This document shows, piece by piece, positions 1,396-24,349 of a stretch of DNA of 64,000 nt. Position 1 is the stretch's first letter, and every line of letters starts with the position of its first letter. The DNA is taken from the sequence record NC_054935.2. One strand, given 5' to 3'. This DNA comes from Escherichia phage YUEEL01. The position numbers were made by a program, and so were the translations under genes. The notes below the pieces were generated by a model. That model saw only the letters and a list, made by a program, of their open reading frames with translations. It had not been told where the DNA came from and made no database searches.

Positions 1396-2082
1396 ATGAA
1401 ACTGTCTAAAGATACTACTGCTCTGCTTAAAAATTTCGCTACTATTAACTCTGGTATTATGCTTAAATCCGGTCAATTTATTATGACTCGCGCAGTTAAT
1501 GGTACAACTTACGCGGAAGCAAATATTTCTGACACTATTGATTTTGATGTAGCAATTTACGATTTGAACGGTTTTCTCGGTATTCTGTCTCTAGTTAATG
1601 ATGATGCAGAAATTTCCCAGTCAGAAGATGGAAATATTAAAATTGCTGATGCCCGTTCAACAATTTTTTGGCCAGCAGCCGATCCGAGTACAGTAGTTGC
1701 TCCTAATAAACCAATTCCATTCCCGGTAGCATCTGTTGTTACCGAAATTAAAGCTGAAGACCTTCAACAGCTGTTGCGTGTATCTCGCGGTCTGCAGATT
1801 GATACAATTGCTATCACAGTAAAAGAAGGTAAAATCGTAATTAACGGTTTTAATAAAGTAGAAGATTCTGCTCTGACCCGTGTTAAATATTCTTTGACTC
1901 TTGGTGATTATGATGGTGAAAACACATTTAATTTCATTATCAATATGGCAAATATGAAAATGCAACCAGGAAATTATAAACTTCTGCTTTGGGCAAAAGG
2001 TAAACAAGGCGCTGCTAAATTTGAAGGTGAACATGCGAATTATGTAGTAGCTCTTGAAGCTGATTCTACCCATGATTTTTAA
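1396..2082 (+). CDS. 45: gp45 sliding clamp
   Basis: 228 aa; sequence recognised as T4 gp45; precedes clamp loader genes. Confidence 0.9.
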   Translation: MKLSKDTTALLKNFATINSGIMLKSGQFIMTRAVNGTTYAEANISDTIDFDVAIYDLNGFLGILSLVNDDAEISQSEDGNIKIADARSTIFWPAADPSTVVAPNKPIPFPVASVVTEIKAEDLQQLLRVSRGLQIDTIAITVKEGKIVINGFNKVEDSALTRVKYSLTLGDYDGENTFNFIINMANMKMQPGNYKLLLWAKGKQGAAKFEGEHANYVVALEADSTHDF

Positions 2083-2085
2083 TAG

Positions 2086-2103
2086 AGGGCTTCGGCCCTT
2101 TAT
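2086..2103 (+). terminator. GC-rich UUCG-loop hairpin followed by T-rich tract after gene 45
   Basis: AGGGC-TTCG-GCCCT then TTTAT. Confidence 0.5.
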
Positions 2104-2133
2104 AATTTACACTAAAACTTGAATGAGGAAATT

Positions 2134-3093
2134 ATGATTACCGTAAATGAAAAAGAACACATTCTTGAACAGAAATATCGTCCATCTACTATCGATGAAT
2201 GTATTCTTCCCGCCTTTGATAAAGAAACCTTTAAATCTATTACAAGTAAAGGTAAGATTCCACATATTATTCTTCATTCTCCTTCTCCAGGAACAGGTAA
2301 AACAACTGTAGCAAAAGCATTGTGTCATGATGTAAATGCTGATATGATGTTTGTGAATGGTTCAGATTGTAAAATTGATTTCGTTCGTGGTCCTTTGACT
2401 AATTTTGCCAGCGCCGCTTCATTTGATGGTCGTCAAAAAGTAATCGTTATTGATGAATTTGACCGTTCAGGTTTAGCAGAATCTCAGCGACATCTTCGTT
2501 CCTTTATGGAAGCTTATAGTTCAAACTGTAGTATTATTATTACTGCTAACAATATTGATGGTATTATTAAACCACTTCAGTCACGCTGCCGAGTTATTAC
2601 GTTCGGTCAACCGACCGATGAAGATAAAATTGAAATGATGAAGCAGATGATTCGTCGATTGACTGAAATCTGTAAGCATGAAGGAATTGCTATAGCTGAT
2701 ATGAAAGTTGTAGCAGCTTTGGTTAAAAAGAATTTTCCTGATTTTCGTAAAACTATTGGCGAGCTCGATAGTTATTCATCTAAAGGTGTTTTGGATGCTG
2801 GTATTTTATCACTGGTTACTAACGATCGTGGTGCTATTGATGATGTTCTTGAGTCTCTCAAAAATAAAGATGTTAAACAACTCAGAGCTTTAGCACCAAA
2901 ATATGCAGCTGATTATTCGTGGTTCGTTGGTAAACTTGCCGAAGAAATCTATTCACGTGTAACTCCGCAGAGTATTATTCGTATGTACGAAATTGTAGGC
3001 GAAAATAATCAGTATCATGGTATTGCAGCTAATACTGAATTGCATTTAGCTTATCTTTTCATTCAATTAGCATGCGAAATGCAGTGGAAGTGA
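2134..3093 (+). CDS. 44: gp44 clamp loader large subunit (AAA+)
   Basis: 319 aa from ATG after GAGGAA SD; Walker A SPGTGKTT; T4 gp44 N-terminus MITVNEKEH. Confidence 0.9.
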
Positions 3094-3094
3094 T

Positions 3095-3658
3095 ATGAGC
3101 TTATTTGAAGATGATATTCAATTAAACGAGCATCAAGTTGCTTGGTATTCAAAAGATTGGACAGCTGTCCAATCCGCTGCTGATTCTTTTAAAGAAAAAG
3201 CTGAAAATGAATTTTTTGAAATAATTGGAGCTATTAATAATAAAACTAAATGCTCTATTGCTCAAAAAGATTATTCAAAATTCATGGTTGAAAATGCATT
3301 ATCACAATTTCCAGAATGCATGCCAGCTGTATATGCAATGAATTTAATCGGTTCTGGATTAAGTGATGAAGCTCATTTTAATTATCTAATGGCTGCAGTT
3401 CCTCGTGGTAAAAGATATGGTAAATGGGCAAAACTGGTTGAAGATTCCACCGAAGTATTGATTATTAAGTTACTTGCTAAACGGTATCAAGTTAATACAA
3501 ATGATGCAATTAACTATAAATCAATTCTTACTAAAAATGGAAAACTACCTTTAGTATTAAAAGAACTTAAAGGTTTAGTCACGGATGATTTTTTGAAAGA
3601 AGTGACTAAGAACGTAAAAGAACAGAAACAACTCAAAAAACTAGCATTGGAATGGTAA
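3095..3658 (+). CDS. 62: gp62 clamp loader small subunit
   Basis: 187 aa; position after 44. Confidence 0.85.
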
Positions 3659-7060: not shown

Positions 7061-7142
7061 CATACAAGTAATATAAATCTATACTTATGAAAAACAGATG
7101 ATTCTGGACATTTAGAATTCCCTAAAAAATTTTCACAAAACT

Positions 7143-7172
7143 GTTTACAAGAATGTTCTTCCATGGTACTAT
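7143..7172 (+). promoter_or_regulatory. T4-type early promoter
   Basis: GTTTAC, 18 bp spacer, TACTAT; palindromic spacer AAGAATGTTCTT. Confidence 0.6.
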
Positions 7173-7209
7173 ACAACTATCAACTACTGATACGGATTTG
7201 GAGAATAAA

Positions 7210-7446
7210 ATGAAAATTGTTATGGGATGCTTAGCAGTTTGTTTAGTTGCATTAGCAGCAGTTCCATTTGTTAGTGTTGAAAATGATACTCAACCTGTGA
7301 TTGAATCTAGCACTGTTATTCACACTAATGGTAAAATATCAGTTAAAATTGATGATAATCTTCATGTGAATACAAATGGATCTTTAGGTGTGCAAATGGG
7401 TAATACCTGCATAAGCACTACTGGAGTAATTACTACTTGCATTTGA
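7210..7446 (+). CDS. small secreted protein (signal-peptide-like N-terminus)
   Basis: SD GGAGAA then ATG; hydrophobic N-terminus MKIVMGCLAVCLVALAAVPF. Confidence 0.45.
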   Translation: MKIVMGCLAVCLVALAAVPFVSVENDTQPVIESSTVIHTNGKISVKIDDNLHVNTNGSLGVQMGNTCISTTGVITTCI

Positions 7447-7456
7447 GGAAATTATT

Positions 7457-7837
7457 ATGAAAATCGCTATTTTGGTTATTGCATTAGGTCTTACTGGTTG
7501 TGTAGCTCAAGGACCGGCAGTAAATCAGTCTGATGTAGGAAAAATTGTAAACTGTTCAAACAAATTTTATAATCCTAATGTCAAGTGTTATAAAGAAGCT
7601 CCAAAGCAAACAGTAGAACAAATGCAGGCGAATTTTGACGAAGCTATTCGTCCAGATGAATCTGCTCAAGCATATCGTAATTCGGATGTAATTACACGCG
7701 AAGAAAAAATTGAAAACTACTGCGCAGAACTTTGGGCAAATTGGGCTAATAATTACCAATGGCGTACAGGTAAAAATGCTCCGATGGAGTATGTAGTGAA
7801 TTCTTATAATTCATGTGTAAAAAATTTGACTAAGTGA
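7457..7837 (+). CDS. predicted lipoprotein
   Basis: SD GAGGAA; N-terminus with lipobox LTGC; several Cys in mature part. Confidence 0.5.
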   Translation: MKIAILVIALGLTGCVAQGPAVNQSDVGKIVNCSNKFYNPNVKCYKEAPKQTVEQMQANFDEAIRPDESAQAYRNSDVITREEKIENYCAELWANWANNYQWRTGKNAPMEYVVNSYNSCVKNLTK

Positions 7838-7844
7838 GGAAAAC

Positions 7845-8096
7845 ATGGAAACTTTAGTAGCAGGTTCAATTTTTATGGTTTTAGTTTCAGGTGTGTTGGC
7901 TATTATTATATACATGCTTCCATGGTTTATCGCCTTGATGCGTGGGTCAAAATCGACAGTAGGAATCTTTTTCACATCTTTACTGTTTAACTGGTCAATT
8001 ATTGGTTGGTTTATTACATTTATTTGGTCAATTGCAGGTGAAACTAAAAAGTCTGCGCAGCCAAATCAGGTAATTATCATCAGAGAGAAGGAATGA
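7845..8096 (+). CDS. imm: Imm superinfection immunity membrane protein
   Basis: 83 aa, two hydrophobic segments, position next to gene 42. Confidence 0.85.
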   Translation: METLVAGSIFMVLVSGVLAIIIYMLPWFIALMRGSKSTVGIFFTSLLFNWSIIGWFITFIWSIAGETKKSAQPNQVIIIREKE

Positions 8097-8249: not shown

Positions 8250-8990
8250 ATGATTAATGACTCTATGACAGTTGAAGAAATCCGTCTTCATTTGGGGCTT
8301 GCATTAAAAGAAAAAGATTTCGTAGTTGATAAAACTGGCGTTAAAACTATTGAAATTATTGGCGCATCATTTGTAGCAGATGAACCGTTTATTTTTGGCG
8401 CTCTTAATGATGAATACATTCAGCGTGAACTTGAATGGTATAAATCTAAGAGCTTGTTCGTTAAAGATATTCCGGGTGAAACACCGAAGATTTGGCAGCA
8501 GGTAGCATCTTCTAAAGGTGAAATTAACTCGAATTATGGCTGGGCTATCTGGTCAGAAGATAACTATGCCCAGTATGATATGTGTTTAGCTGAACTTGGT
8601 CAAAATCCTGATTCTCGACGTGGTATCATGATTTATACTCGTCCATCCATGCAATTTGACTACAATAAAGATGGTATGTCAGATTTCATGTGTACTAATA
8701 CAGTACAGTACCTGATTCGTGATAAGAAAGTCAATGCAGTAGTAAGCATGCGCTCAAATGACGTGGTCTTCGGATTCCGTAATGATTATGCATGGCAAAA
8801 ATACGTATTAGATAAATTAGTATCTGATTTGAATGCAGGCGATTCAACTCGTCAGTATAAAGCAGGTTCTATTATATGGAATGTTGGAAGTCTTCATGTA
8901 TATTCTCGTCATTTTTACTTGGTTGATCATTGGTGGAATACTGGCGAAACTCATATTGTGAAAAAAGATTATAACGGTGAGTGGAAATGA
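8250..8990 (+). CDS. 42: gp42 dCMP hydroxymethylase
   Basis: 246 aa; thymidylate-synthase-like fold protein at the conserved position. Confidence 0.9.
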   Translation: MINDSMTVEEIRLHLGLALKEKDFVVDKTGVKTIEIIGASFVADEPFIFGALNDEYIQRELEWYKSKSLFVKDIPGETPKIWQQVASSKGEINSNYGWAIWSEDNYAQYDMCLAELGQNPDSRRGIMIYTRPSMQFDYNKDGMSDFMCTNTVQYLIRDKKVNAVVSMRSNDVVFGFRNDYAWQKYVLDKLVSDLNAGDSTRQYKAGSIIWNVGSLHVYSRHFYLVDHWWNTGETHIVKKDYNGEWK

Positions 8991-9829
8991 TTCAATTCGT
9001 AATTCCAAGCTATCAACGTGTAGGGGCAGTTTCTGCCCTTGATATGTTTCCGACTGATTATGAACCTCATATTGTAGTGCGTGAACACGAAGAAAAAGCT
9101 TATTATGATGCCTATGGGTCTAGAGCTAAAATTATAACTATTCCTGATGATGTAAACGGAATTGCCGGTACTCGTAAAGCAATTACTGATATGTATGCAG
9201 GTCAACGAATCTGGATGATTGACGATGATACTACTATCCGTATGAGTTCAATACGAAAGAGAGACGATAAACGGCGCGTAGATAAAATTAATCAATTAAC
9301 TCGTGAACAGTTCTATGAATTGATTCAATATGTTGAGGATGCCATGGATTGCGGATATTATCATGGCCATGCTCGTCTACCAATTTTTAAAATTACTTCA
9401 TCTTGGGGTAATTATCGTGAAAATTCATATGGATTCACGAATACATGGTATGACCTCGGAAAACTTACGACAGAACAAATTGGGTATGGAAAAATTGATT
9501 TATGCGAAGATATGTATGCATTTCTCAATTTAATTAATCAAGGTTATCCGCATTTGGCCTTGTTCAAATATCTAGTTGTATCTGGAAAAGCACAAGCTCC
9601 TGGCGGGTGTAGTTCAATTCGTAGTAATTCTAAACATAATAGAGCGCTTGAGCAAATCAATAGAGAGTTTCCAGAGCAAGCTCGTTGGAAAACTTCTAAT
9701 ATTGAAAAACGAAAATCGTTGGGTGAAGAAGACGAGCCATTAAAGGTTCTTCGCATGTGCGTTTCGCGTAAAGAAAAATCAGAAGCATTTCATAAGTTTA
9801 ATGCTATTCATCCAATAGCAGTTGATTAA
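8987..9829 (+). CDS. putative glycosyltransferase with DXD motif at the beta-gt locus (candidate HMC-DNA glucosyltransferase of non-T4 type)
   Basis: About 280 aa versus T4 beta-gt 351 aa; IPSYQR N-terminus and IWMIDDDTTI (DXD) suggest GT-A fold. Confidence 0.5.
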   Translation: MIQFVIPSYQRVGAVSALDMFPTDYEPHIVVREHEEKAYYDAYGSRAKIITIPDDVNGIAGTRKAITDMYAGQRIWMIDDDTTIRMSSIRKRDDKRRVDKINQLTREQFYELIQYVEDAMDCGYYHGHARLPIFKITSSWGNYRENSYGFTNTWYDLGKLTTEQIGYGKIDLCEDMYAFLNLINQGYPHLALFKYLVVSGKAQAPGGCSSIRSNSKHNRALEQINREFPEQARWKTSNIEKRKSLGEEDEPLKVLRMCVSRKEKSEAFHKFNAIHPIAVD

Positions 9830-9906
9830 TGCCTAAATTTATTGTGTTATAATTACTCTATCTTTAACCAGTGAGGAAAATATAATGATGCCTATGGAAA
9901 AAATGA

Positions 9907-11088
9907 ATGTCTATTGCAGATTTAAAATCCCGTTTGATTAAAGCTTCCACTTCTAAAATGACTGCTGAACTGACTACATCTAAATTCTTTAATGAAAAGG
10001 ATGTAATTCGTACAAAAATTCCAATGCTTAATATTGCTATTTCTGGTGCGATTGATGGCGGTATGCAGTCTGGTTTAACTATTTTCGCAGGGCCTTCTAA
10101 ACACTTTAAATCAAATATGTCTTTGACTATGGTTGCAGCGTATTTGAACAAATATCCTGATGCAGTTTGTCTATTCTATGATAGCGAATTTGGTATTACT
10201 CCAGCTTATTTGCGATCCATGGGAGTTGACCCGGAACGTGTAATTCATACGCCAATTCAATCAGTTGAACAGCTGAAAATTGATATGGTGAATCAGCTTG
10301 AAGCTATTGAGCGTGGTGAAAAGGTTATAGTATTCATCGACTCAATTGGTAATATGGCTTCTAAGAAAGAAACGGAAGATGCCTTGAATGAAAAATCTGT
10401 GGCAGATATGACTCGTGCTAAATCACTGAAGTCATTATTCCGTATTGTTACTCCTTATTTTAGTATTAAAAACATTCCATGTGTTGCGGTTAACCATACA
10501 ATTGAAACAATTGAAATGTTTAGTAAAACCGTGATGACAGGTGGTACAGGCGTAATGTATTCGGCTGATACTGTATTCATTATCGGTAAGCGCCAGATTA
10601 AAGATGGTTCTGATCTTCAGGGATATCAATTTGTTCTAAATGTAGAAAAATCTCGTACCGTTAAAGAAAAAAGTAAATTCTTTATTGATGTTAAATTTGA
10701 CGGTGGTATCGATCCTTATTCTGGATTGTTAGATATGGCTCTAGAATTAGGATTTGTAGTAAAACCTAAAAATGGCTGGTATGCTCGTGAATTTCTTGAT
10801 GAAGAAACCGGCGAGATGATTCGCGAAGAAAAATCTTGGCGTGCAAAAGATACCAATTGCACTACATTCTGGGGTCCTTTATTTAAGCATCAACCATTCC
10901 GAGATGCTATTAAACGTGCTTATCAGTTAGGTGCTATTGATAGTAATGAAATTGTTGAAGCTGAAGTTGATGAATTGATTAACTCAAAGGTTGAAAAATT
11001 TAAATCTCCAGAAAGTAAAAGTAAATCAGCAGCTGATTTAGAAACTGACCTAGATCAGTTAAGTGATATGGAAGAATTTAATGAATAA
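9907..11088 (+). CDS. uvsX: UvsX recombinase (RecA/Rad51 family)
   Basis: 393 aa; near-identical to recalled T4 UvsX. Confidence 0.95.
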   Translation: MSIADLKSRLIKASTSKMTAELTTSKFFNEKDVIRTKIPMLNIAISGAIDGGMQSGLTIFAGPSKHFKSNMSLTMVAAYLNKYPDAVCLFYDSEFGITPAYLRSMGVDPERVIHTPIQSVEQLKIDMVNQLEAIERGEKVIVFIDSIGNMASKKETEDALNEKSVADMTRAKSLKSLFRIVTPYFSIKNIPCVAVNHTIETIEMFSKTVMTGGTGVMYSADTVFIIGKRQIKDGSDLQGYQFVLNVEKSRTVKEKSKFFIDVKFDGGIDPYSGLLDMALELGFVVKPKNGWYAREFLDEETGEMIREEKSWRAKDTNCTTFWGPLFKHQPFRDAIKRAYQLGAIDSNEIVEAEVDELINSKVEKFKSPESKSKSAADLETDLDQLSDMEEFNE

Positions 11089-15579: not shown

Positions 15580-16917
<1,338 letters not shown>

Positions 16918-16919
<2 letters not shown>

Positions 16920-24103: not shown

Positions 24104-24349
24104 GTGGAAATAACTAAAGATCAGTTTTATCTTCTTCAAGATAAAGTAAGCGAAATTTATGAAATTGCTTATAGCAAAAATCGTGAAACTGTAAAAATAG
24201 AATCTAGTAAGTTGAGGCTTCAATTAGAAGAAATTGAACGAGATTTAATTGCGTTAGAATTCTTTTGTGGTGAAGTGAAAACTGTTACAATCAATGATTA
24301 TATTTTAGGCGAAATTAGCTATCTTTATAAGGCGATTATTAATGATTGA
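24104..24349 (+). CDS. hypothetical protein (dexA.2-like)
   Basis: GTG start after GAGGAAG; paralog of next ORF. Confidence 0.35.
   Translation: MEITKDQFYLLQDKVSEIYEIAYSKNRETVKIESSKLRLQLEEIERDLIALEFFCGEVKTVTINDYILGEISYLYKAIIND

Follow-up and report, generated by a model that had tools for sequence, protein, structure and literature searches.

Positions 8987 to 9829 of the DNA of Escherichia phage YUEEL01 analysed here (NC_054935.2, a stretch of 64,000 nucleotides referred to below as the window) hold an open reading frame (ORF) that is very probably an intact ortholog of the ba-gt gene of phages T2 and T6; on this best explanation of the data, it encodes the DNA glucosyltransferase that adds the second glucose and gives gentiobiosyl-hydroxymethylcytosine (gentiobiosyl-hmC). 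This analysis showed directly which gene it is, to which family and fold class it belongs, that its motifs are conserved and that its position is syntenic.

Identity and genomic context of ba-gt

The gene and its upstream boundary comprise the following features.

8250..8990, plus strand: gene 42, encoding the dCMP hydroxymethylase gp42, which makes the hmC precursor; directly upstream of ba-gt
8987..8990, plus strand: ATGA shared by the ba-gt start codon and the gene 42 stop codon, read from the sequence and annotated likewise in T4_ev151, T2 and T6
8987..9829, plus strand: ba-gt gene (also ggt or TAGT; beta-glucosyl-HMC-alpha-glucosyltransferase), 280 aa plus stop, assigned from PF20691, PHROG 842 and identity to T2/T6

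The preliminary description of this DNA, which was made from the sequence alone, had placed an ORF of about 280 aa between gene 42 and uvsX. Such a frame of 280 aa is indeed present on the plus strand at 8987-9829, with its ATG start at 8987 and its stop codon at 9827-9829, and the ORF downstream of it (9907-11088) is UvsX. The mechanical ORF list opens this frame at GTG 8981, a start that was rejected in favor of ATG 8987, since all ten aligned homologs open with MIQFVIPSY or a near variant and the alignments to 472 phage records span precisely the 843 nt between 8987 and 9829. Because start and stop overlap as ATGA, translation of ba-gt is probably coupled to that of gene 42, and the same overlap suggests that the two genes are co-transcribed. 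The gene is present in a single copy within the window, and its G+C content of 36.8% is in line with that of the neighbouring genes. It is no chance reading frame, because homologs ranging from 98% to 32% identity share 40 invariant columns with it.

The comparison with T2 and T6 sequences that had been proposed as a check showed that the protein is 98% identical to that of T2 (AP018813) and 97% identical to that of T6 (AP018814) over 280 aa, and 100% identical to its counterpart in phage T4_ev151. There are 5 differences from T2 and 8 from T6 (AP018814, missing Asp counted), the residues that vary between YUEEL01 and T2/T6 being 11, 40, 55, 79, 89, 95, 97, 101, 106 and 251. The length of 280 aa, the motifs, the slot between gene 42 and uvsX and the ATGA overlap are common to the T2/T6 genes and that of YUEEL01. 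At the family level, the protein matched Pfam PF20691 (TAGT) with 40.7 bits against a gathering threshold of 27.5 (E = 3.2e-10), residues 3-207 covering profile positions 2-205 of 205, so that the match spans the entire profile and clears the curated cut-off. The match to PHROG 842 (phrog_842, beta-glucosyl-HMC-alpha-glucosyltransferase) was at 1.5e-88. The "TET-associated" name of the Pfam family misfits the context in YUEEL01, because the hydroxymethyl group comes from gp42, a dCMP hydroxymethylase acting on nucleotides, and not from a TET/JBP dioxygenase acting on DNA.

The window is collinear with T6 at 97% from 8250 to 11088, and T6, T2 and T4_ev151 have ba-gt between 42 and uvsX, as in the window. 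A megablast search of the phage collection returned 472 records that carry ba-gt at full length with at least 90% nucleotide identity, likewise positioned between gene 42 and uvsX. These are chiefly Tequatroviruses of Escherichia, Shigella, Yersinia and Salmonella, and many of the records label the gene "beta-glucosyl-HMC-alpha-glucosyltransferase", "beta-alpha-glucosyltransferase" or "glucosyl transferase". At the protein level, 687 records matched the ba-gt product; a second group of homologs with 60-80% identity occurs in phages of Klebsiella, Enterobacter, Salmonella and Citrobacter, besides which there are a few more distant relatives. The gene is thus already known: hundreds of T4-like phages have it in their annotation, its GT-A fold has been described in the literature and genetic work has demonstrated its role. 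Winkler and Rueger reportedly cloned ba-gt from T2 and T6 in 1993. The present finding is therefore a correct annotation and no new biology, and the difference between T4 and T2/T6 is textbook knowledge.

Predicted fold and conserved motifs

Two segments had been singled out in the preliminary description as hallmarks of a GT-A-like enzyme, VIPSYQR and IWMIDDDTTI, and both are found in the ba-gt product, at residues 5-11 and 75-84. With a third conserved site, they are located as follows.

8999..9019, plus strand: VIPSYQR, codons 5-11, first beta-strand with the IPxY(N/Q)R motif; N-terminal nucleotide-binding signature of GT2-like GT-A enzymes
9209..9238, plus strand: IWMIDDDTTI, codons 75-84, with the DXD motif D79-D80-D81 at the end of a beta-strand; putative divalent metal and UDP diphosphate site
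9506..9511, plus strand: E174-D175 of LCEDMYAF, codons 174-175, at a helix N-terminus; candidate catalytic base of an inverting GT-A enzyme

To model the protein, AlphaFold2 was supplied with an alignment of the ba-gt protein and nine homologs spanning 98-32% identity. The model had a mean pLDDT of 72.8 and a pTM of 0.76; its first 120 residues are good (pLDDT 71-94), and the loops 127-141 and 197-210 are poor. The protein is predicted to fold into one Rossmann-like domain of alpha/beta/alpha type, similar to solved GT-A enzymes. Its matches among solved structures were GT-A and none was GT-B, and it also matched viral TAGT-domain models. With the DXD motif lying at the end of a strand, the structure prediction thus favors the GT-A-like fold that had been suggested from the motifs. 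This is in agreement with a published AlphaFold3 model of the T6 TAGT protein, which was placed in the GT-A superfamily as a sister to GT2, alpha-GT and beta-GT being GT-B (PMC13216743).

Within the alignment, I6, P7, S8, Y9 and R11 of the N-terminal motif are invariant in the 10 homologs, and residues 2-6 form a strand in the model (pLDDT 84). M77, D79, D80 and D81 are equally invariant in the 10 homologs, down to 32% identity, and the model strand 74-79 (pLDDT about 89) ends at the DXD motif. D175 is invariant and E174 nearly invariant among the aligned homologs, and a helix predicted for residues 174-185 begins there.

A search of the PDB with the single ba-gt sequence returned chance matches only (E > 1), and a profile search returned one weak but informative GT2 match, 9jma_A (E = 0.23). 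In this GT2 glucosyltransferase, IPTYNR aligns with the VIPSYQR motif and LDDDD with the DXD motif of ba-gt. The predicted fold class of ba-gt is common to GT2-family GT-A enzymes (AvpGT 9jma, TarP 6h1j, BcsA 4p00 and SpsA 1h7l), as are the N-terminal IPxYN/QR strand and the DXD motif at the end of beta-4. The enzyme is accordingly viewed as a relative of family GT2, with no relationship to the two GT-B enzymes of T4, alpha-gt and beta-gt.

Proposed reaction and alternative readings

The reaction chemistry and the effects on host defences are proposed here by analogy with the literature on T2 and T6. The enzyme encoded by ba-gt in these two phages glucosylates cytosines that are already alpha-glucosylated, which gives 5-gentiobiosyl-methylcytosine (PMC13216743, PMC6024577). 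Tequatroviruses that combine an alpha-GT with a TAGT gene, the latter in the slot syntenic to that of T4 beta-GT, were found by HPLC/MS to contain alpha-glucosyl- and alpha-gentiobiosyl-hmdC (PMC13390438). A T6 delta-ba-gt mutant is viable and has only alpha-glucosyl-hmC in its DNA (Hossain et al. 2024, PMC11078745). The share of gentiobiosyl-hmC is about 5% in T2 and 72% in T6, with near-identical enzymes (PMC11078745, PMC6024577).

In YUEEL01, gp42, encoded directly upstream of ba-gt, would supply the 5-hydroxymethylcytosine that replaces cytosine, and an alpha-glucosyltransferase encoded outside the window would place one glucose on hmC in DNA. The ba-gt enzyme would then transfer a second glucose from UDP-glucose to the 6-OH of the alpha-linked glucose in a beta linkage, giving gentiobiosyl-hmC. 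The N-terminal IPSYQR strand and D79-D80-D81 (D79/D81) may hold UDP-glucose through a divalent metal, and the base of an inverting single-displacement reaction, which would activate the acceptor glucose at its 6-OH, is probably D175 of the conserved ED pair. Inversion is to be expected from a beta-linked product and a UDP-alpha-glucose donor; the catalytic base and the metal dependence we infer from fold and conservation.

This scheme requires the partner gene a-gt. A search for an alpha-gt homolog within the window returned none, and in relatives a-gt maps to the left of the window, beyond genes 45-47. The nearest relatives, T4_ev151, CHD16UKE1 and T6, all carry a-gt, and CHD16UKE1 is 98% identical over positions 1-25000 of the window. 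From its presence in these closest relatives, we infer that YUEEL01 carries a-gt as well. Orthology to the T2/T6 genes lends support, at the level of sequence, to the gentiobiosyl-type modification that had been anticipated for this phage. The presence of ba-gt predicts YUEEL01 DNA with alpha-glucosyl-hmC and gentiobiosyl-hmC, as against the alpha and beta mono-glucosyl pattern of T4.

The predicted sugar pattern bears on host range and on phage therapy. Deletion of ba-gt in T6 raises sensitivity to the glycosylase Brig1, and DNA of the mutant is a Brig1 substrate in vitro (PMC11078745). T6 DNA resists deglucosylation by BapA and T6 delta-g-gt DNA does not (bioRxiv 10.64898/2026.02.25.707755). 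Gentiobiosyl-hmC is reported to resist both Brig1 in vitro and BapA (PMC11078745; bioRxiv 10.64898/2026.02.25.707755). Enzymes of the GmrSD type still cut DNA that contains gentiobiosyl-hmC (PMC13390438, PMC13216743). A further ORF of 259 aa in the window (16140-16919) matches phage DNA methyltransferase families (phrog_56, 1.6e-69); it presumably encodes Dam, the adenine methylase of T-even phages, and gives the window a second gene for DNA modification.

Two public T6 records have apparent lesions in ba-gt (an amber codon in MH550421 and the loss of an Asp in AP018814), T2 gentiobiosylates only the small share of its hmC given above, and T6 tolerates loss of the gene (PMC11078745). These observations would fit a ba-gt that is dead or dispensable in YUEEL01, whose DNA would then contain alpha-glucosyl-hmC and bare hmC only. 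We regard this as very unlikely, given that the ORF is intact and of full length, retains each of the 40 residues that are invariant in the family, D79-D81 and D175 among them, and encodes a protein identical to that of T4_ev151.

An enzyme of the TAGT family could also have another activity, such as direct glycosylation of hmC, the use of beta-glucosyl-hmC as acceptor or the transfer of another sugar. Specificity does vary within the family, because other TAGT homologs pair with a beta-GT or occur without a-GT and beta-GT (PMC13216743); Karamvirus and Muldoonvirus, for example, have TAGT followed by beta-gt in tandem. The variants that are paired with a beta-GT or stand alone, however, have only 47-65% identity to the YUEEL01 protein, or less, whereas the T2 and T6 enzymes are 97-98% identical to it. 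The nearest relatives of YUEEL01 moreover carry a-gt and not beta-gt, and the window has no beta-gt homolog. A different activity is for these reasons highly improbable, and the second-glucose transferase of the T2/T6 type is the reading that we retain.

The proposal that the ORF is a diverged or truncated T4-type beta-glucosyltransferase of GT-B fold draws on its slot, which is that of T4 b-gt, and on GenBank records of ba-gt labelled "b-gt" or "putative beta-glucosyltransferase", but it is refuted by BLASTP against T4 beta-gt (no similarity, E = 4.1), by Pfam, where the beta-gt family gave no match and TAGT was the only one, and by structural comparison, where the matches were GT-A, so that its probability is negligible. 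The view of the preliminary description that the locus does not hold a T4-type beta-gt was therefore borne out, and its figure of 351 aa for T4 beta-gt was correct. T4 beta-gt (GT-B, PF09198) and ba-gt have in common the slot, the UDP-glucose donor, the beta linkage and the decoration of hmC-DNA; they are unrelated in sequence and fold and differ in length (351 aa versus 280 aa), and T4 beta-gt acts on bare hmC whereas ba-gt would extend alpha-glucosyl-hmC.

The gene 42-uvsX interval in other phages

A search for a T4 beta-gt homolog within the window returned none. DNA homology to T4, at 95.6%, extends across gene 42 as far as position 8972, where it breaks off, and resumes only at 9919 inside uvsX. 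This break indicates that the whole gene 42-uvsX cassette differs from that of T4, where the interval holds b-gt and the homing endonuclease gene segA.

A stretch of 25 nt is shared by the two phages at the end of the cassette. Window positions 9807-9831 match T4 (NC_000866) positions 24238-24262 with 24 of 25 nucleotides identical (BLAST E = 9e-6), and local alignment of the 3' flank in the window with the T4 b-gt-uvsX interval recovered only this match. The T4 stretch corresponds to the last 22 nt of ba-gt with the stop codon and a further base, and lies between b-gt and segA, immediately before the segA ATG. Because of its E-value and its syntenic position, it looks like a relic of a ba-gt that was displaced by beta-gt in the T4 lineage. 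A 2026 paper on how the T4 GT pair evolved has none of the words relic, remnant and segA. The intergenic region between b-gt and segA of T4 also contains, between b-gt and the putative relic, an unannotated hydrophobic ORF of 24 codons, MLGPLLLIIGLGLFAFWDFFCYID, on the minus strand at about 4350-4276 of the extracted segment. It is preceded by TATCTTTAACCGGTGGA, which is similar to TATCTTTAACCAGTGAGGA upstream of uvsX in the window.

The interval is arranged differently in other phages. In Karamvirus (Enterobacter phage myPSH1140) and Muldoonvirus (Serratia phage Muldoon), the order is 42, TAGT, beta-gt, uvsX, with the tandem pair at 1501-3404 and 1492-3440 of the respective extracted segments, and the TAGT acceptor in these phages is presumably beta-glucosyl-hmC. 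In Escherichia phage AugustSocin, a putative homing endonuclease gene (963-1604 of the extracted segment) lies between gene 42 and ba-gt. An order of ba-gt, homing endonuclease and uvsX in this phage, considered as an explanation of the T4 junction, was rejected on account of that position. Like segA in T4, the insert is another sign that the 42-uvsX interval is a hot spot for mobile endonucleases.

The two T6 records mentioned above differ in their lesions. In MH550421, codon 10 of ba-gt is an amber TAG, and the annotated CDS begins at Met20 and has 261 aa (minus strand, 7138-7980 of the extracted segment). In AP018814, which is the same as RefSeq NC_054907 in length and gene coordinates, a one-codon deletion changes DDD to DD and leaves 279 aa (minus strand, 2138-2974 of the extracted segment). 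Unlike these records, the window, T2 and the other aligned homologs have an intact ba-gt, the YUEEL01 gene being free of both the codon-10 amber and the DDD-to-DD deletion. The T6 lesions could be mutations of laboratory stocks or sequencing errors.

A scan of the window for promoters and terminators gave counts near the shuffled expectation, and its only notable site was an intragenic hairpin.

9021..9041, plus strand: G+C-rich terminator-like hairpin GGGGCAG-TTT-CTGCCC(T), codons 13-18 of ba-gt, from the scan for terminator-like sites; delimited more narrowly as 9023..9039

It is conceivable, though we consider it doubtful, that the T4 relic records a recent replacement of an ancestral ba-gt by beta-gt, and that this hairpin or the few residue differences of the YUEEL01 protein from T2 and T6 might set the extent of gentiobiosylation. 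The stem was looked for in the ortholog of Serratia phage Muldoon and is absent there. The hairpin is identical in T2 and T6, and the ortholog of Karamvirus myPSH1140, at about 65% protein identity, has the stem with a changed loop.
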